Source: Alphaproteobacteria bacterium (GTDB lineage: Bacteria; Pseudomonadota; Alphaproteobacteria; RF32; CAG-239). From it: a stretch of 64,000 nucleotides of DNA. Where the stretch lies: NCBI GenBank assembly GCA_017444525.1, contig JAFSWL010000022.1, forward strand, positions 73,879-137,878. Direction: 5' to 3'. This document shows positions 7,166 through 49,270 of the stretch, piece after piece. The stretch's first letter is position 1; each line of letters begins with the position of its first letter. Below the pieces are notes generated by a model. That model was not told the origin of the DNA, ran no database searches, and saw nothing but the letters and a program-made list of their open reading frames with translations. The translations under genes and the position numbers were made by a program.

Positions 7166-7495
7166 TCGGTGTTTATATTGATATCCGCTAATTTTTACTA
7201 GACACTTTTAAATATCTGTCTTATGATGTTGACAGACAGGGAGGCCTGTTCGGGGTGTGGTAGCCTCTGCAATAGAAAGTATATAAAGACGTAAGGTTGC
7301 ACGTCTACCGGTCATGTATATATGATATGTGGCTGGAAGGCGGCAAAATACGCCGTTTTAAAACTACATATATATGCTCGAGCGATATGTGCCGGTTATG
7401 GCTAATATGTCGCACAATCCTATTGCATTGTTACCAACTTCCAGTCGCTTTTTTAAGCGGCTTTTTGTTTGTGGCTTGAACTAAAGGAAGTTGTG

Positions 7496-10447
7496 ATGAA
7501 AAAAAATAACAAAAAGATAAATTCAAATATAATCACCGTTCAAAACGCGGAAGGCGATGCTAATACAAAAGCGGAAATTGTGGTACAAAATCAGATAAAT
7601 TACACACCGAAAGTATCGGTGATTATTCCGGTGTATAATGTGGAACAATATCTGCGAGAGTGTCTGGACAGTGTGGTTAATCAGACACTGCGTGAAATAG
7701 AAATTATCTGCGTTGATGACGGCTCAACGGATTCTTCTTTGGATATTTTAAAAGAGTATGCTGCAAAAGACAAGCGCGTTACCGTTATCAAACAAGAAAA
7801 CTTGCATGCCGGAGTCGCACGCAACGCCGGTTTAGCAGTGGCTAAGGGAGAATATATTCATTTTTTGGATTCTGATGATTGGATTGATTTAGATACATAT
7901 CAACAACTGTATAACCTTATTCAGGAGAAACAAGCTGATTTTGTAAAATTTAAATCTTATACCTATGATAATGAAGAGCGCAAAATAGTTAGTTCCTATT
8001 TTACGAATATGAGCGCAGTTAATGACAATCATTTCGGAAGATTTAATGATTGGAAAACGGAATATCAGACATTAGTAAATGTTTCTGATGCCCCTTGGTC
8101 TGGCATATATAATCGTGATTTTTTGATTTCAAATCATATTTTATTTGATAATTTGTTATGCGCAAATGATACGTCTTTTTTCTATAGATGTCTAGTTTCT
8201 GCAAAAAAGATATATCTGGAGCAAAGACGTTTTGTTTATTATCGAATAAATAACTCTGCATCTTTAATAAATATCAGAGCATATAATTTTGATTGTCAAA
8301 TCAAGCAGTTTTTCATCATCCAAAATATTGTTAAAGATGTTCCAGATAAAATAAAAGAAGTATTTCGCAAACATTTAATAAGTGCTTTATTTTACAGATA
8401 TTCTCAATATAAAAATAATACGGAATTAGCTCCCAAAGCAAAACGAGAAATATATAGACAAATTAAAAGATTTATTTATTATGTATCTGAGATAGAAATT
8501 CCAGCGAAATATTTACCTTATTACTATGAAATACTGGAAAGACCTTTAATTTCTGTTATTATTCCTGTCTATAATGCAGAAAATTATTTGCACGAATGCT
8601 TAAACAGCGTTGTTAACCAGACTTTAAGAGAAATTGAAATCATTTGCGTTGATGACGGTTCTTCCGATTCATCTTTGAAAATATTGCAAAAATATAAAGA
8701 TATAGATTCTCGTATTAAAATAATTTCACAAAAAAATAAAGGCTCCGCATCTGCTCGAAATAATGGTATGAAAAACGCCTTAGGATGTTATATTGGATTT
8801 ATAGATAGTGATGATGTTGTTTCTGCAAATTATTTTGAAGCACTTTTAAATTGTGCTTTATCCAAAAGAGCAGACATCGCAGCAACATCCAACGTTCAAC
8901 TATTTAATACTCATGGTTTTCAATCCTTAAAAAACATGGGATTTCAAGGTAAAAAAATCATAGAATCGGTTGAAGATAAAGGCAATATTATTATAACCAC
9001 TGGGGTATCTTGTAATAAGATATATCGCAAAGGATTTCTAGATACTGCCGATATAAAGTGCTTAGAGATAAAGAATGCTGCAGAAGATAATTACTTTACT
9101 GATACAGCTATAATCGCTTCAAATAAAATAACCGTAGTAGATAATGCTATCTATTATTATAGAATTAATCAGACATCACAAACTCAAGTGCTTAAAAATA
9201 GAACACAATTTTTAATGACTAAAATTTATCAAATGATAGATAATTACATTATAAATCAGCATTTAACTCAAACAGAAAAAGACCAATGGTTAGAAATTAT
9301 AAACAAACGAAAAGTTAAAGACTTTATTTACTTTAAAAATACTATGCAATCCATATATATAAAAGATTTTCGAAAACATTTTATTTCAGTGTTTCCAAAT
9401 TTGAAAAAATATGTAGCAGAAATTATAGTTTCTCTCACTTCATATCCGGCGCGAATAAAGACCGTGCATCAAACAATTTATTCCTTGTTGACACAGAGTG
9501 TCAAAGCCGATAAGGTTATTTTATGGCTTGCAGAAGAACAATTCCCGAATAAAGAGAAGGATTTACCACAAGAATTGTTGTCTTTGACCAAAATAGGCTT
9601 AGAAATTGATTGGTATCATGATATAAAAAGTTATAAAAAATTAATTCCGTCGCTTAAAAAATATCCTGACGCAATCATTGTAACGGCTGATGATGATTTG
9701 CTTTATGATAAAAATTGGTTAGAAAAATTACTCCTTTCATATTGTAAAACAACAAATGCAATACATTGTCATCGCGCACATATGATGAACTTTGAGAAAG
9801 GAGTAGTATTGCCATATCGGCAATGGACGCAAAACATCAAACAAAACAAAACTCTTTATAATACGTTCCAGACCGGAGTTGGCGGTGTCCTTTATCCACC
9901 GCACAGTTTGTATAAAGATGTTTTAGATGAAGAAAAATTTATGCGCTTATGCCCGCAAGCCGATGATATATGGTTTTGGGCAATGGCTGTAAAAAACAAT
10001 ACACCTATTAAAGTGGTGGAAAATAATATTACAAAGCTTAACTATGTTGACGGCACACAAAAAACTGCTTTATGGCATAGCAATGTTATTGAGGGACAAA
10101 ATGATATACAACTGCAAAATGTATTAAAAGAATATCCCGAAATATTAGATAAACTGGATAAAACCATATCACCGACACAACCGAAAAATATTGAACAACC
10201 GCATAAAGCTGTTGTTTTATCAGCACATGTTCAGTCCGAACCACTTATTGCGCCGCAATTGAAAAAATATGTTTTATCGTACAATTTGTTCGGTTTTTTA
10301 CCACTTTTTACATACAGACGTCGGGGAGGAAAAGAGGTTTGGAAAATTTTAAGTATTCCATTCTGGAAAGTGCGTAAAGTGGAAAACGGCACAATCAAAA
10401 AATACTATTTTCTCAATTTACCACTGCTGAAAATATCCGATATGTAG
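7496..10447 (+). CDS. multidomain glycosyltransferase: two tandem GT2 (GT-A) domains plus a third transferase-like domain
   Basis: I moved the start to the ATG at 7496, which has an AAGGAAG RBS. Two paralogous blocks VSVIIPVYN..CL.SVVNQTLREIEIICVDDGS occur at aa 47 and aa 355. A third domain carries SLTSYPARI and ADDD. Confidence 0.75.
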   Translation: MKKNNKKINSNIITVQNAEGDANTKAEIVVQNQINYTPKVSVIIPVYNVEQYLRECLDSVVNQTLREIEIICVDDGSTDSSLDILKEYAAKDKRVTVIKQENLHAGVARNAGLAVAKGEYIHFLDSDDWIDLDTYQQLYNLIQEKQADFVKFKSYTYDNEERKIVSSYFTNMSAVNDNHFGRFNDWKTEYQTLVNVSDAPWSGIYNRDFLISNHILFDNLLCANDTSFFYRCLVSAKKIYLEQRRFVYYRINNSASLINIRAYNFDCQIKQFFIIQNIVKDVPDKIKEVFRKHLISALFYRYSQYKNNTELAPKAKREIYRQIKRFIYYVSEIEIPAKYLPYYYEILERPLISVIIPVYNAENYLHECLNSVVNQTLREIEIICVDDGSSDSSLKILQKYKDIDSRIKIISQKNKGSASARNNGMKNALGCYIGFIDSDDVVSANYFEALLNCALSKRADIAATSNVQLFNTHGFQSLKNMGFQGKKIIESVEDKGNIIITTGVSCNKIYRKGFLDTADIKCLEIKNAAEDNYFTDTAIIASNKITVVDNAIYYYRINQTSQTQVLKNRTQFLMTKIYQMIDNYIINQHLTQTEKDQWLEIINKRKVKDFIYFKNTMQSIYIKDFRKHFISVFPNLKKYVAEIIVSLTSYPARIKTVHQTIYSLLTQSVKADKVILWLAEEQFPNKEKDLPQELLSLTKIGLEIDWYHDIKSYKKLIPSLKKYPDAIIVTADDDLLYDKNWLEKLLLSYCKTTNAIHCHRAHMMNFEKGVVLPYRQWTQNIKQNKTLYNTFQTGVGGVLYPPHSLYKDVLDEEKFMRLCPQADDIWFWAMAVKNNTPIKVVENNITKLNYVDGTQKTALWHSNVIEGQNDIQLQNVLKEYPEILDKLDKTISPTQPKNIEQPHKAVVLSAHVQSEPLIAPQLKKYVLSYNLFGFLPLFTYRRRGGKEVWKILSIPFWKVRKVENGTIKKYYFLNLPLLKISDM

Positions 10448-12541: not shown

Positions 12542-12625
12542 AATTCAAACATATAAAAAAAGCTAAAAAATGCAAGTCTAAAATTTTTGCTTGCCCTTTT
12601 ATTGCAAATTGTTTAGTATAATCTT

Positions 12626-12775
12626 GCAGGCAAGAGATTGTCTGCGGAGTGTCGAAGCTCCCAAGAAGAAAATAGCTCCTCATTGGTGGGGAGCCGGCGG
12701 AATATATTGAATACGCCGGACTGACTTCTTGCAGTTTCGAACTCCCGACCACTTTTTTGAGTGGTCTTTTTGTTT
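12626..12775 (+). ncRNA. structured small RNA, family copy A1
   Basis: A -10 TATAAT lies at 12617-12622. A 5' hairpin is followed by closing helix P1, variable helix P2, hairpin 2 and hairpin 3 with the invariant loop GAATATATTGAATA. An intrinsic terminator GACCAC-loop-GTGGTC plus a T-run ends it. Confidence 0.55.
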
Positions 12776-12854
12776 TAATTACAGAGTATGTAACAAAAAC
12801 ACCGCGTTAAATATTTTCGTTGCTTTTTGTTATATTTTCTGTAATATGGGAGTC

Positions 12855-13003
12855 GCAGGCAAGAGATTGTCTGCGGAGTGTCGTAGCTCCTTAAGAGAAA
12901 ATAACTCCTCTATTATGGGGAGCTGATGAATATATTGAATAAATCAGACTGTTCTCTTACAGTTACGAACTCCCCACCTTAAAGAAATTTAGGGTGGTTT
13001 TTT
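12855..13003 (+). ncRNA. structured small RNA, family copy A2
   Basis: The upstream promoter is TTGCTT, a 16-nt spacer, then TAATAT at 12830-12848. The architecture matches A1, with compensatory changes in P1, P2 and the hairpin 3 stem. The terminator is CCACC-loop-GGTGG plus a T-run. Confidence 0.55.
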
Positions 13004-13029
13004 AATATAACAAAAAGGAGTTCAAAAAT

Positions 13030-13254
13030 ATGAGTTCACATAATTTGCTTAGTAAAAAAGTTTTAACAGATATTTGTTCGCGGCTTAAACAATTGCGTCT
13101 TGAGCGTCAACTCAGCATAGAGGATTTGCAAGCCGCCACCCACCTTAAACTCAAAACATTAAAACGTATGGAAAATGGTAAGTGCTTACCTTTCAGATAT
13201 TATCGGCGTTTACTCAATTTTTACGGCAAAGAAATACGAATCGTGATTGAATAA
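13030..13254 (+). CDS. 74-aa XRE-family helix-turn-helix protein
   Basis: An AAAGGAG RBS precedes it. The HTH_XRE-like segment is LRLERQLSIEDLQAATHLKLKTLKRMENGK. It has a paralog at 16590-16814. Confidence 0.6.
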   Translation: MSSHNLLSKKVLTDICSRLKQLRLERQLSIEDLQAATHLKLKTLKRMENGKCLPFRYYRRLLNFYGKEIRIVIE

Positions 13255-13260
13255 AGCCAT

Positions 13261-16080
13261 TTATTTCAACTTGCCTTTCAGATATTTGCCGGTGAAGCTT
13301 TTTTTATTTTTCGCCACTTCCTCCGGTGTGCCTTGGGCTACAATCGTACCGCCGCCATCGCCGCCTTCCGGTCCGACATCAACAATATAATCCGCCATTT
13401 TTATCACATCGAGATTATGTTCAATCACCACTACGGTATTACCCTGTTCTACCAACATTTCCAAAACGTCAAGCAAATGTTGAATATCTTCAAAATGCAA
13501 ACCGGTTGTCGGCTCGTCTAAAATATACAAAGTTTTACCGGTGGCTTTTTTGCTAAGTTCTTTAGAGAGTTTGATGCGTTGCGCCTCGCCTCCGGAAAGT
13601 GTCGGTGCCGGCTGTCCGAGTTTAACATAACCCAAACCCACACGGCGCAATAAATCCAACCGCCGTTTTATTGCCGGAATATTCTCAAAAAACTTGTAAG
13701 CGTCGTCAATTGTCATATCCAAAACATCGGCAATCGACTTATCCTTAAATTTGATTTCAAGAGTTTCGCGGTTGTAGCGGGTACCATGGCAGGCATCGCA
13801 CGGAACATACACGTCCGGCAAAAAGTTCATCTCGATTTTCATTACGCCGTCACCTTTGCAGGCCTCGCAACGACCGCCGGCAACATTAAACGAAAAATAG
13901 CCCGAAGTATAGCCGCGCGCTTTAGCCTCCGGCAATTCGGCAAACCAATCGCGGATATTGGTAAACACACCGGTATAAGTTGCCGGATTAGAACGCGGCG
14001 TGCGCCCTATCGGCGATTGGTCAATATCAATCACCTTATCGATATTTTCCAAGCCGATGAGTTTATCATACGGCCCCGGCGGCACACGAGAGCCGTTCAT
14101 TTCTTTATCCACCGCCTTAAACAGCGTTTCTAAAATCAGCGAAGATTTACCGCTGCCGGAAATACCGGTAACACAAGTAAACGTGCCAAGCGGTATTTTT
14201 AAATCAACATTTTTCAAATTGTTGGTGCGCGCACCTTTGAGCTCCAAAAATTTACCGTTTCCCTTGCGGCGAATCGGCGGCAAGGCAATTTCTTTTTCAC
14301 CATTCAAATATTTGGCAGTGAGGCTGTTCGGATTATGCAAAACCTCGTCAACCGTGCCGGCGGCGGTAACTTCCCCGCCCAAAGTGCCGGCAAGCGGTCC
14401 CATATCCACCAGATAATCGGCGGCGCGCATGGCATCTTCATCATGTTCCACTACAATCACGGTATTGCCGATATCACGCAGACGGCGCAGACTGTCGAGA
14501 AGTTTATCATTATCGCGCTGGTGTAAACCGATGGAAGGCTCATCCAAAACGTACATCACGCCGGTTAAACCCGTACCGATTTGTGAAGCCAAGCGAATCC
14601 GTTGAGCCTCACCGCCGGAAAGAGTTCCCGACTGGCGCGACAAAGTCAGATAATCAAGCCCGACATTATTCAAAAAGCTTAATCTTTCGCGGATTTCTTT
14701 TAATATTTTGCGGGCAATTTCCTGCTTTTGCGGAGTTAATGTTGCCTCAACATTATCAAACCACTCCAACGCTTGTTTAATTGACATATTGCTGGCATCA
14801 ATAATATCTAAACCGGCAATTTTAACCGCCAAAGCCTCCTGTTTAAGCCGTTTGCCGTGGCAAACTTCACAAGGAGCGGCCGATTGATAATGCGAAAGCT
14901 CATCACGCACCGCTGCCGAATCGGTTTCCACAAAACGGCGTTCTAAATTAGGAATCACTCCTTCAAACGGTTTATCCGATACCCATTTGGAATAAACCAT
15001 CGGCACGCAGCGATTACCTGAGCCGTAGAGTATTGTTTCTTGTGCATACTCTGGCAAGTCTTTCCACGGAGTTTTGTTGGATATATCAAGATATTCACAT
15101 AAAGAATTTAAGGTCTGGCGATAAAAAATCGAATGACTGCTGACCGACCACGGGGCAATCGCTCCGCCTGCCAGACTCAGATTTTCATTCGGCACCACCA
15201 ACTCCGGATCCATATATAAACTGGCGCCCAAACCACCGCAATGCGGACAAGCCCCCTGCGGATTGTTGAACGAAAACAACCGCGGTTCAATCTCCTCGAT
15301 CGTAAATCCCGATACCGGACAGGCAAATTTAGAAGAAAACGTAGTGCGTGATTTATCACTCATATTTTCGACATACAATAAGCCGTCACTCAATTTTAAG
15401 GCGGTTTCCACCGATTGCGCCACGCGGGTTTGAATCCCCTCTTTTATCACAATGCGGTCAATTACCACTTCAATATTATGTTTAATATTTTTGTTCAAAT
15501 TCGGCAATTCTTCAATGTTATAAATCTCGCCATCTATATCTAAGCGCTGAAAGCCTTTTTTCTGCAATTCGGCAAATTCTTTTTTAAACTCGCCTTTTTT
15601 ACCTCGAGCAATCGGCGAAAGTAAAATAAGTTTTGAGCCTTGCGGGTATTCCAAAATTTTATCAACCATTTGGGTTAAAGACTGAGCTTCAATCGGCAAT
15701 CCTGTTGCCGGCGAATACGGAGTGCCGGCACGCGCCCACAGCAAACGCATGTAGTCATATATTTCCGTTATAGTACCGACCGTTGAACGCGGATTATGAG
15801 AAACAGTTTTCTGTTCAATTGAAATTGCCGGAGATAGACCCTCTATCGAATCGACATCAGGCTTATTCATCAAATCTAAAAATTGTCGGGCATAAACCGA
15901 AAGACTTTCAACATACCGACGTTGTCCTTCCGCATATATGGTATCAAATGCCAAAGAAGACTTACCCGAACCGGATAAGCCGGTAATAACCGTCAGCTTG
16001 TTTTTCGGAATATTAACATTCACGTTTTTCAAGTTGTGCTGGCGTGCGCCTTTGATTTCGATATATTTACTTTCTGCCAT
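13261..16080 (-). CDS. uvrA: excinuclease ABC subunit A
   Basis: It has two ABC ATPase modules ([10 protein letters not shown] and [10 protein letters not shown]) and zinc-finger cysteines. I moved the start to [11 protein letters not shown] at 16080, which has a GGAG RBS. Confidence 0.93.
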
Positions 16081-16181
16081 TTTTTTCTCCGTTGCGATTG
16101 ATATATACCAATTACATGCGTTTCGCAACTGTTTAATAAATAAAACTTGCTTTTTTAAGCAAACTGATTACAATGACTGTT

Positions 16182-16329
16182 GCAGATAAGAGATTGTTTG
16201 CGGAGTATCCTAACTCCTTCCATAATATATAAACTCCTCAATGGTGGGGAGCCGGTTGAATATATTGAATAGACCGGACTGTTTATGGACAGTTAGGAAC
16301 TCCCGACCACTTTTTTGAGTGGTCTTTTG
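16182..16329 (+). ncRNA. structured small RNA, family copy B1
   Basis: It has the same architecture as A1 and A2. P1 carries a C-G versus G-C swap and P2 is a new but still complementary pair UCCAUAA/UUAUGGA. The terminator GACCAC...GTGGTC is followed by a T-run. Confidence 0.55.
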
Positions 16330-16411
16330 TTTTGATTACAGAACGTCTAACAAAGGTGATACCTTAAATATTTTCGTTGCTTTTTGTTATATTTTCTGTA
16401 ATATGGGAGTC

Positions 16412-16558
16412 GCAGATAAGAGATTGTCTGCGGAGTGTCGAAGCTCTACCAATAGAAAATAACTCCTCGCTGGTGGGGAGCCGGTTGAATATATTGAATA
16501 GACCGGACTGACTATTGGCAGTTTCGAACTCCCGACCACTTTTTGAGTGGTCTTTTTG
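16412..16558 (+). ncRNA. structured small RNA, family copy B2
   Basis: Its promoter TTGCTT, a 16-nt spacer, then TAATAT is identical to that of A2. P2 is CCAAUAG/CUAUUGG. It ends in the same terminator. Confidence 0.55.
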
Positions 16559-16589
16559 TTTTGATAACTGCAAAAAGGAGTTCTGAAAA

Positions 16590-16814
16590 ATGAGTACGCA
16601 TAATCTGCTCAGCAAAGAAGTTTTAACGGAAATTTGCGCACAATTTAAACAGTTAAGAATTGAACATCAACTCAGTATCGAGGAATTGCAAATCGCCACA
16701 AACCTTAGCCTCAAAGTATTAAAACGCATGGAAAACGGCAAATGTATGCCTTTCAGATATTATCGACGTTTGCTGGAATTTTATGGTAAAAAAGCTCGAG
16801 TTGTAATTGAATAA
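16590..16814 (+). CDS. 74-aa XRE-family helix-turn-helix protein, paralog of 13030-13254
   Basis: It is about 70% identical to the product of 13030-13254 over its whole length, and it has the same RBS and the same upstream RNA pair. Confidence 0.6.
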   Translation: MSTHNLLSKEVLTEICAQFKQLRIEHQLSIEELQIATNLSLKVLKRMENGKCMPFRYYRRLLEFYGKKARVVIE

Positions 16815-31825: not shown

Positions 31826-31846
31826 TTTTCTGAAACAAATGTATAA

Positions 31847-31876
31847 AAATGCCGCTTAAATAAAGCGGCATTTTTA
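31847..31876 (+). terminator. terminator hairpin after rplQ
   Basis: The hairpin GCCGCTTTAAATAAAGCGGC is flanked by an A-run and a T-run. Confidence 0.55.
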
Positions 31877-31887
31877 ATTACTCAAGT

Positions 31888-31922
31888 AAAATCCGCAAAC
31901 AATTCTCTTGCCTGCGGATTTT
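31888..31922 (-). terminator. trxA terminator hairpin carrying the 5' hairpin module of the RNA family
   Basis: A perfect 10-bp stem AAAATCCGCA/TGCGGATTTT is present. On the minus strand the sequence reads GCAGGCAAGAGAATTGTTTGCGGA, which matches the 5' module of the A1 and B1 RNAs. Confidence 0.45.
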
Positions 31923-45434: not shown

Positions 45435-45794
45435 AAGAGTGTTCTCTAAAAAAATCCCGCCATAATGAGCGGGATTTTTTAGCATATAATATTCCGTCCT
45501 TTGTTAATATCTTCCGCATTATATTGCCGTTGCCGCTCGCGCCCGTCTATCATACAGACAATATCAATAATCAAATCACTGCGTTCCTGTTCATTCAAAA
45601 AAGGTGCTAACTGTTTCAGTCATCTATCCATTGTAATCAACGCAATATTATCCTGTTCTTGTTTAGAAAAAGTATCTTGTTCTTTCAGTTCACAATCATT
45701 GGTGATTTGCTGTATTTTTTTCTTGGCCATTTTTTTCTCCGTAAAAATTAAAGACTATGACGTCATCTGACGCGCATAGTCCGATTGTTAAACA

Positions 45795-46005
45795 AAAAAA
45801 GACCACTTAAAAAGCGGTCGGGGAATTCAAACAATCCTAATCAACAAGAACCGTTGCGGTTTTTAGGTATACCTTGGACATAGCCGCAACTCCCCCGACC
45901 ATATTGTCGAAGAATTTATCCCTACTTTATAGTCGGGGATTATTTAATGTTGATTAAGGGATGTTTGAAGTCCCCGAGTGATAAATCCTTCGGGTTCATC
46001 ACTCT
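45795..46005 (-). ncRNA. divergent fifth member of the structured RNA family, downstream of fba
   Basis: On the minus strand a 5' hairpin GAGTGATGAACCCGAAGGATTTATCACTC precedes P1 GGGGACUUCAAA/UUUGAAUUCCCC. P2 CUUAAUCAACA/UGUUGAUUAGG and two internal hairpins follow. The terminator GACCGC-loop-GTGGTC is followed by seven T residues. Confidence 0.4.
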
Positions 46006-46159
46006 AAACAAAGTATTGACTACTTTGCCTGTAAAAACTTATAACAAACAAAGAAACAAAATGCAATAATAATCTTGCGTGTATTTTAAATATTTTTGTT
46101 TTATTAAGAGAAAACCGCCGGATTGCTCCGACGGTTTATATTGTTACTATCCGCTAAAA

Positions 46160-48972: not shown

Positions 48973-49270
48973 TTCTAACGTCCTTTTTGGTTACAAAAAA
49001 GCCCGCATTTTGAGGCGGGCGGATGTTAGAAAACCGTATACAACCAGACGGCTCGACGTTTTCGCGCGCAAAGCCTTATTAAGCCGACATCCGTCCAACA
49101 AAGACGTATTGTCAGTTACTGTTATTTAAAGTCATGGATCCATGACTGGTTGTATAAAGGGTTTTCTAAGCCCTCGGTCGTATTCTTTTCTAAGGAACAC
49201 AACCTGTTTATAAGTTATTTTATTTTTTTATGATTGGCAAGAACGATTTTAAGTATGCGCATAATAATAA

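Follow-up and report, generated by a model that had tools for sequence, protein, structure and literature searches.

The Brt RNAs are reportedly restricted to Bartonella, where they are said to control adhesin and biofilm regulators, and sRNA-Xcc1 has, to our knowledge, so far been treated as an isolated integron-borne small RNA. Brt RNAs are 194-203 nt long, multi-copy and abundant, the trp genes downstream of them are silent, and they have been reported as genus-specific (PMC5387305). Individual Bartonella species carry 0 to 34 copies, and Brt is present on plasmids too. According to a passage in a review that cites the primary study (PMC8070961), trp1 becomes active once the 3' stem-loop of Brt1 is deleted, and heme elicited a response from a reporter. 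In the present study we describe a structured RNA element on the minus strand, at approximately 46033-45794, of a 64,000-nucleotide stretch of an Alphaproteobacteria bacterium assembly (GCA_017444525.1, contig JAFSWL010000022.1), which we refer to as the window. The element lies 128-155 nt past the stop codon of fba, on the same strand, and before a small open reading frame (ORF). It belongs to a broader RNA family with covarying helices, and we propose that it acts as a terminator/antiterminator switch.

The RNA is approximately 240 nt long, with a minimum free energy (MFE) of -96.8 kcal/mol at full length. The fold of positions 45795-46010 has an MFE of -87.9 kcal/mol, compared with -50.9 +/- 4.4 kcal/mol in dinucleotide shuffles (z = -8.4), and none of the 200 shuffles folded as well. 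A first-pass annotation of this DNA had placed a series of helices at 45795-46005, in the same order as in four other copies in the window (A1, A2, B1 and B2), followed by a terminator with seven U residues. All of these helices are present on the minus strand, by both sequence reading and the MFE fold; the MFE folds of all five copies agree on the helix order, and the terminator scan flags the same terminator hairpin. The annotated interval is indeed structured, but the RNA probably begins approximately 28 nt further 5', where there is an extra conserved hairpin. The architecture shared by the family consists of a 5' hairpin, a P1/P2 long-range stem, H3 (YCCC..GGGRAG), H4 and a terminator starting GACC directly after the P1 3' strand; the inner part of H3 in the element is an expanded insert, specific to its subtype.

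Family membership was assessed with three covariance models, R1 being built from 18 A/B-type sequences only, R2 from 27 diverse members with the element excluded, and R3 from 35 sequences of other genomes only, with no Bartonella sequence. R1 scored the element at 25.6 bits, in the wrong register and with only the terminator and 3' module aligned, and broader models were therefore needed. R2 matched the element over its full length with 74.5 bits (E = 1.4e-20), a score above that of A2, which was in the training set, and R3 likewise gave a full-length match of 78.4 bits (E = 1.4e-21; model positions 1-160). As neither model was trained on it, the element is a real member of the broader family, of a long subtype, which bears out the earlier proposal of a second subtype in a structure-defined family. 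The description 'divergent fifth member' thus holds for membership, but not for the A/B subtype specifically: R1 recognizes the 3' module only, and the element is therefore no closer to A1-B2 than to the other subtypes. It also has none of the traits of the A/B subtype, namely the H4 loop GAAUAUAUUGAAUA, a 74-77-residue XRE gene downstream and a high R1 score. Similarly, the 3' module annotated as near-identical to that of the A/B copies is shared, but differs by one C (CUCCCCGACC in the element and CUCCCGACC in A/B), and because of this difference an ungapped search with the module finds this copy alone.

Nothing in the 64-kb window reached the gathering threshold of any Rfam 15 model, and Rfam matches to the element region at E <= 10 were noise only; at gathering thresholds, no Rfam model covers the Brt loci or the family members in metagenome-assembled genomes (MAGs). 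BLAST and nhmmer searches of the element against the window returned only terminator-sized matches to the A/B copies, and a plasmid collection held nothing similar to the element itself. The wider family was collected by scanning the shared 3' module over one genome per species, which produced many chance matches in high-GC genomes and one clear cluster, in low-GC MAGs labelled Alphaproteobacteria, Rhodospirillaceae/Rhodospirillales, Candidatus Enterousia and similar. Folding of the cluster loci gave several subtypes on the same plan, and a pattern scan of metagenomes added further long-type members and no orthologue of the element. The genes behind the family terminators encode XRE regulators, PLD-family nucleases, secreted or adhesin-like proteins and others, and in the other members the terminator is followed within approximately 15-40 nt by the ribosome-binding site (RBS) and ATG of a same-strand gene. 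The model also found members that lack the exact 3' scan pattern beside seeded ones, at L072:6484-6659(+), L100:1575-1734(+), L077:5213-5403(-) and L011:1953-2095(+), where the L-numbered names are contigs; several genomes thus carry neighbouring, often divergently oriented copies of different subtypes.

Synteny around fba, in relatives whose fba is 83-87% identical, revealed no orthologue of the element; the orthologues came to light only by way of the downstream ORF, translated past its stop codon. The orthologue contigs carry fba, a spacer of approximately 430 nt and an 83-aa gene, and R3 finds the RNA in this spacer at 82-86 bits in three further lineages (L149, L150/151 and L154-157). In the four-way alignment P1 is invariant and the terminator shows one G/A change that is still paired (G-U or A-U), while the variation falls in P2, H4 and the 5' hairpins. 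Altogether 97.4% of cells are paired, and the number of pairs changed on both sides is 8, compared with 2.3 +/- 1.2 in shuffles; a slide control peaks at 0, with approximately 52% paired at +/-1 column and 35-41% at +/-2-3. By eye, P2 is rewritten at six of its nine pairs (UAAUCAACA:UGUUGAUUA becomes UACAAGUAA:UUACUUGUA), and five pairs of H4 carry compensatory changes. The first 5' hairpin has one compensatory pair and one G-U change, the second has 97.9% of cells paired with three one-sided changes, and H3 has 97% of cells paired, with its 3' strand aligning to that of the family. P1b, P2 and H4 also covary among the A/B copies, and P1b does so at the family level, so that the long-range P1/P2 pairing proposed earlier is supported both by the compensatory changes in P2 and across the family. 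Across 50 distinct sequences of the family, pairing in the modelled helices amounts to 79.8%, compared with 70.6% in shuffles, with a slide control that is sharp at zero, and 151 double-change cells were counted, compared with 68 in shuffles, in an alignment that was fitted to the model.

These data bear directly on the suggestion that the element might be a decayed, non-functional paralogue of the A/B copies. Although it is missing the A/B H4 loop, scores only 25.6 bits with the A/B-only model and stands before an ORF that contains a stop codon, its helices are all intact, the whole-family models score it above A2, and its orthologues in three other lineages preserve the pairing by compensatory changes. 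Moreover, its H4 inner motif recurs in L086/L147 and in the Bartonella Brt RNAs, so that H4 resembles that of other long subtypes and of Brt and not an A/B loop in decay. Of the explanations considered in the present study, decay is the one to which we give the least credence.

The comparison of lineages also shows how the element is delimited. In the L152/L153 lineage the fba terminator, the -35-like hexamer, the conserved spacer hairpin and the ORF are all kept and exactly the RNA module is absent. This module is approximately 264 bp long, includes the -10-like hexamer and the terminator, and is flanked by an 8-bp direct repeat, TTTTGTTT (46061-46054 and 45797-45790), of which one copy stands at the junction in L152:2328-2506. 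Either the module was deleted between the short repeats, or it was inserted and its target site duplicated. The orthologue context and this absence thus show the element to be a distinct module that belongs to the leader of the small gene and is set apart from fba by the terminator of the latter.

Presence and absence between otherwise identical flanks, with an 8-bp repeat at the border, is also what might be expected of a small repeated or mobile DNA module, similar to a miniature inverted-repeat transposable element (MITE) or spread by recombination, in which the inverted repeat of P1/P2 would serve DNA mobility. R2 and R3 indicate at least five, and probably seven, copies of the family within 64 kb, and the Brt copy number (0 to 34) and plasmid occurrence fit the same picture. 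However, P2, H4 and P1b differ between copies or orthologues and yet stay complementary, unlike terminal repeats recognized by a transposase, the orientation to the downstream gene is fixed, and the AT-rich repeat is equally explained by deletion between short repeats. As the stems covary rather than keep their sequence, we have set the MITE idea aside and consider mobility a quite improbable explanation of the element.

Its position on the same strand shortly past the fba stop codon had also led to the idea of a 3'-untranslated region (3'-UTR)-derived RNA of fba, made by read-through or mRNA processing without a promoter of its own, and the failure of the upstream hexamers in a consensus scan would be in keeping with this. 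However, fba has its own terminator-like hairpin and U-run (46135-46106) between it and the RNA, kept in the four-way alignment except for one substitution, although a simple terminator scan of this region did not list it. In addition, fba genes 83-87% identical to this one are followed in other contigs by a ferritin gene, with no such RNA and no model match, and L152 keeps the fba terminator, -35-like hexamer and ORF leader, yet is missing the RNA module alone; members of the family elsewhere follow unrelated genes, with similar hexamers. The usual signs of a 3'-UTR-derived small RNA, i.e. a 3' end in common with the fba mRNA, no terminator between the two and co-occurrence with fba, were not found at this locus. 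The annotation had also noted no clear promoter, whereas the hexamers TTGCAT and TATAAG, separated by 17 nt, precede the RNA, are invariant in the four orthologues and are followed immediately by the first 5' hairpin; judged from these hexamers, transcription probably starts at approximately 46033. We consider an origin in the fba 3'-UTR very improbable.

To describe how such an RNA might operate, it is useful to define five segments that recur in every subtype: a, GGGG at the start of P1; b, CCC approximately 10 nt past a; c and d, the 5' and 3' strands of H3, d having the family sequence GGUCGGGGAG; and e, CUCCCCGACC, which spans the end of P1 and the four bases with which the terminator stem begins. 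The stable fold contains the pairings a:e and c:d together with the terminator. Segment d can equally well pair with e, and in nearly all members the d:e duplexes are of 8-10 bp and -17 to -23 kcal/mol (10 bp and -20.9 kcal/mol in the element), according to an alignment-free tabulation; the subtypes sit in different registers of the model-fitted alignment. The d:e duplex takes up the first four terminator-stem bases, and in four sequence variants it covaries with the terminator; c:d covaries as well. The pairing is GGUCGGGGAG:CUCCCCGACC in the element, GGUCUGGGAG:CUCCCAGACC in L086/L147, GGUUGGAGG:CCUCCAACC in L100:1575 (terminator AACCGC..GCGGUU), GGCCGGGUG:CACCCGGCC in L077:5213 (terminator GGCCUCUC..GAGAGGCC) and UUCCGGGAG:CUCCCGGAA in Brt. 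RNAalifold, applied to a broad MAFFT alignment, selects d:e together with a:b, a GGG..CCC hairpin.

The covariation of d:e across subtypes points to a terminator/antiterminator attenuator, and the RBS and ATG close behind the terminator in other members are an attenuator layout. In the mechanism we propose, the two 5' hairpins would fold, P1/P2 would then close the junction that holds H3 and H4, and the terminator would end the RNA; in this default fold an RNA of approximately 240 nt would be released and the downstream ORF kept off. If H3 and P1 were blocked or opened, d would pair with e, the 5' end of P1 would fold on itself (a:b), the terminator would be blocked and transcription would read through. 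With moderate confidence, we take the element to be a functional, independently conserved family member in the leader of the 83-codon gene and a default-off switch of this kind. Its structure, membership, conservation and the covariation of c:d and d:e rest on direct evidence, whereas termination and read-through in vivo, and any trans-acting role of the released RNA, are inferred.

Several observations weigh against this interpretation. The terminated fold is favoured over the d:e fold both at full length (-96.8 compared with -68.1 kcal/mol) and before the 3' half of the terminator is made (-86.5 compared with -67.0 kcal/mol). With a difference of approximately 20-29 kcal/mol, termination should occur by default, and only a strong effector or kinetic control would allow read-through. 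A U-run, that of the terminator loop, is still present after d:e, and the alternative fold might thus also terminate, as the 3' end of sRNA-Xcc1 suggests; in Brt, the d:e pairing has no overlap with the 3' stem-loop. The downstream genes of the family are heterogeneous, which argues against a simple metabolite riboswitch regulon. At this locus 70 nt, including a second conserved hairpin and its U-rich tail, separate the terminator from the ORF, which is interrupted in this lineage and truncated in two others; cis-regulation may be vestigial here. Finally, the promoter-like hexamers are weak by consensus and were not flagged by a strict consensus promoter scan, and, the DNA being so AT-rich, the regions preceding family members yield the same best-hexamer scores as shuffled sequence. 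As the promoter is thus not statistically supported, we treat it as putative.

Some of these points would suit a stand-alone trans-acting small RNA that always terminates at its own terminator and has no cis role on the ORF. The terminator, whose 8-bp stem is followed by seven U residues, is a strong one, and the terminated fold is overwhelmingly favoured. The RNA is also well conserved, whereas its downstream ORF is interrupted in this genome and truncated in L154-157 and L152. A1 and B1 precede another RNA copy rather than a gene, and a trans role has been proposed for both Brt1 and sRNA-Xcc1. Nevertheless, the terminators of the family almost always stand at a short, fixed distance from the RBS of a same-strand gene, and a purely trans-acting RNA gives no reason for d:e to covary with the terminator sequence; the 3' end of Brt1, as far as the review passage mentioned above describes it, behaves as an attenuator for trp1. 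The trans and cis roles are not mutually exclusive, and we regard an exclusively trans-acting RNA as rather unlikely, the default-off switch remaining our preferred reading.

Downstream of the terminator, the spacer (45731-45793) has three variable positions in approximately 70 nt among the four lineages, none of them in its hairpin, and is therefore more conserved than the stems of the RNA itself. This 13-bp hairpin (fold z = -3.9) is kept in the L152 lineage, which is without the RNA, and it might serve as another terminator, act as a control element at the RNA level or be an operator for a protein. Intact homologues of the downstream ORF have 83 aa and 74-83% identity, with a cysteine residue where TGA stands here; the 83-aa product has no Pfam domain and no helix-turn-helix (HTH) domain. 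The 36-aa version was called in at least five contigs from different samples (L127-L131), and in other lineages the ORF is altered N-terminally (53 aa) or C-terminally (79 aa). As a separate observation, a 6S RNA (52 bits, above its gathering score) lies downstream of the 83-aa gene at L149:3529-3685 on the minus strand. No 6S RNA match was found in the 64-kb window, and the corresponding place is occupied by the ATP synthase b' gene converging on the ORF. The features of the locus are collected in Table 1.

Table 1. Features of the element, its flanks and the A/B copies, in window coordinates
Feature	Positions	Strand	Sequence	Basis or remark
fba terminator-like hairpin	46106..46135	-	ACCGUCGG-AGCAAU-CCGGCGGU + UUUCUCUU	read from sequence; between fba and the RNA
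Promoter-like hexamers	46038..46066	-	TTGCAT (46066-46061), 17-nt spacer, TATAAG (46043-46038)	sequence reading; predicted start ~46033-46031
5' hairpin 1	46006..46030	-	GGCAAAGUA-GUCAA-UACUUUGUU	MFE; outside the interval of the first-pass annotation
5' hairpin 2	45976..46004	-	GAGUGAUGAACC..GGAUUUAUCACUC	MFE; abuts P1; the 5' hairpin annotated earlier
P1, 5' strand	45962..45975	-	GGGGA.CUUCAAAC	MFE; R2 and R3 align it to family P1; first bases = segment a (GGGG)
Segment b	45956..45961	-	AUCCCU	local hairpin with a in constrained alternative fold
P2, 5' strand	45948..45959	-	CCU.UAAUCAACA	MFE
H3	45893..45938	-	UCCCCGAC..GUCGGGGGA	MFE; 5' strand = segment c (UCCCCGAC)
Segment d	45900-45890	-	GGUCGGGGGAG	H3 3' strand; runs a few bases beyond H3 into the start of H4
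H4	45853..45890	-	GUUGCGG..CCGCAAC; inner motif GCUAUGUCCAAGG..CCUAAAAA	MFE; orthologue covariation
P2, 3' strand	45836..45846	-	UGUUGAUUAGG	MFE; orthologue alignment
P1, 3' strand	45820..45833	-	GUUUGAA.UUCCCC	MFE; R2 and R3; start of segment e
Segment e	45826-45817	-	UUCCCCGACC	last P1 bases and first four terminator bases (GACC)
Intrinsic terminator	45794..45819	-	GACCGCUU-UUU-AAGUGGUC + U7	terminator scan; 8-bp stem
Second (spacer) hairpin	45753..45782	-	GGACUAUGCGCGUCAGAUGACGUCAUAGUC, then UUUAAUUUUU	13-bp hairpin/palindrome before the ORF
Downstream ORF	45479..45730	-		RBS GGAG, ATG at 45730; 36 codons, TGA 45622-45620, then 46 in-frame codons
A1	~12620-12772	+		family copy
A2	~12851-13003	+		family copy
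B1	~16178-16332	+		family copy
B2	~16408-16560	+		family copy

Each of the A and B pairs is followed by a 74-aa XRE-type HTH gene, A1 and B1 themselves standing before another RNA copy. The two loci (12620-13254 and 16178-16814, plus strand) are paralogous and flank uvrA (13261-16128, minus strand); in both, two RNA copies stand in tandem, and each copy is provided with promoter-like hexamers and a terminator of its own. The tandem layout is also seen in L093. A more divergent member of the family is found at 48995-49205 on the minus strand, with 26.9 bits in R2 and 30.8 bits in R3 (E = 1.6e-7) and a fold z of -6.4. It has a 5' hairpin, a P1 (GGGCUUAGAAAACC / GGUUUUCUAACAUCC) that closes a multi-hairpin junction and a terminator (GCCCGC..GCGGGC) with six U residues, it directly precedes the glycosyltransferase gene (48972-48274) that opens the cluster closed by fba, and it is present too in the same-species contigs L127 and L128. 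A candidate member at 7236-7468 on the plus strand scores weakly (15.6 and 18.9 bits; E ~5e-4 to 5e-3) and has a strong fold (z = -5.5), with a 5' hairpin, P1 (GGGGUGUGGUAGC / GUUACCAACUUCC), several inner hairpins and a terminator (AGUCGCUU..AAGCGGCU) with a U-run; it lies just 5' of a 992-aa glycosyltransferase ORF (7469-10447). Finally, at 31844-31921 on the minus strand, promoter-like hexamers and an A-type 5' hairpin (GCAGGCAAGAGAAUUGUUUGC) are followed, after approximately 23 nt, by an unrelated terminator (AUGCCGCUUUAUUUAAGCGGCAU and a U-run). This unit appears to be either a family member that was truncated or recombined or a distinct small RNA built on the same 5' hairpin.

Taking the family as a whole, we put forward, as a tentative idea that is possible rather than probable, that A1-B2, at least five further gut subtypes, the Brt RNAs and sRNA-Xcc1 form one large undescribed class of terminator/antiterminator switch RNA. 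This class would be either an orphan riboswitch or a protein- or RNA-controlled leader that travels with accessory genes (XRE regulators, nucleases, surface proteins and toxins) and gates their expression by a common signal, its terminated product doubling as an abundant small RNA. If the result holds, Brt, sRNA-Xcc1 and undescribed leaders of gut Alphaproteobacteria would appear to share one scaffold with a covarying antiterminator, and no Rfam 15 model detects the family members at its gathering score. The three-strand terminator/antiterminator logic would offer a mutational handle on how Brt-type RNAs switch, and the comparative alignment of the family a basis for seeking the effector. The subtype of the element shows that the scaffold tolerates large insertions, and the maintenance of the RNA even where the gene behind it decays hints at a second, trans-acting role.

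sRNA-Xcc1 (RF02221) is known from Xanthomonas campestris, integron cassettes, plasmids and phages. Its Rfam model, of 87 positions, is a 9-bp stem closing two hairpins and followed by a U-run, which corresponds to the d:e-closed fold of the 3' domain of the family (d, H4, a second hairpin and e). With RF02221, which has a gathering score of 53, higher-GC members come close, L077 scoring 51.1 bits (E = 3.4e-6) and L009 44 bits, and a second copy in L077 scores 33.5 bits, L114 32.6 bits and the 3' domain of A1 32.1 bits; the element itself gave no match to this model at E <= 10, and no family member reaches the gathering score. sRNA-Xcc1 differs in being an 88-nt RNA without the 5' domain (5' hairpins, 5' strands of P1 and P2, and 5' strand of H3) and without a separate terminator hairpin. 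As in the family, it is followed directly by small genes, here carried on mobile DNA: symE in the case of integron cassettes, and a gene with an ORF6N domain in that of APSE phages.

The element also resembles attenuating riboswitches and classical attenuators in being a structured leader with a multi-helix junction, in the P1 3' strand abutting an intrinsic terminator and in having a conserved strand with two mutually exclusive partners. It differs from them in having no leader peptide and no T-box features, and the genes downstream of the family are heterogeneous; none of the Rfam riboswitch models matches.

The Brt RNAs are among the closest known parallels. Brt1-9 are, like this family, RNAs of approximately 200 nt that are highly structured, multi-copy and alphaproteobacterial. 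Two plasmid-borne Brt copies were compared, their sense strand being the reverse complement of those loci, as set by the primers in PMC5387305. On this strand a 5' hairpin, P1 (AGGGAUUAAAAG / CUUUUAACUCCC), H3 (UUCCCGG..CCGGGAG), H4 and a 3' stem-loop directly before the gene follow one another, a layout common with the element. R3 aligned the P1-H3-H4-P1' part of the two copies, on the sense strand and with the correct helices, at 20.6 and 19.3 bits (E = 1.6e-4 and 4.1e-4, E-values that are rough). Because the sequence similarity is weak, the call of homology rests on modest scores, and we regard it as suggestive that the family and the Brt RNAs are homologous. The element differs from Brt in its second 5' hairpin, its expanded H3 and its position before an 83-codon ORF without an HTH domain, whereas A2 and B2 share with the Brts the position before a small XRE HTH gene. 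The 3' stem-loop of Brt is of another sequence and without a U-run, and the Brts were reported as Bartonella-specific, while this family occurs in uncultured gut Alphaproteobacteria and other MAGs. The H4 motifs are near-identical (UUAUGUCCA..CUAAAAG in Brt and GCUAUGUCCA..CUAAAAA in the element), and the 3' end of Brt1, in the account given in the review passage, acts as an attenuator for trp1 (PMC8070961), which provides a precedent for the switch that we propose for the element.

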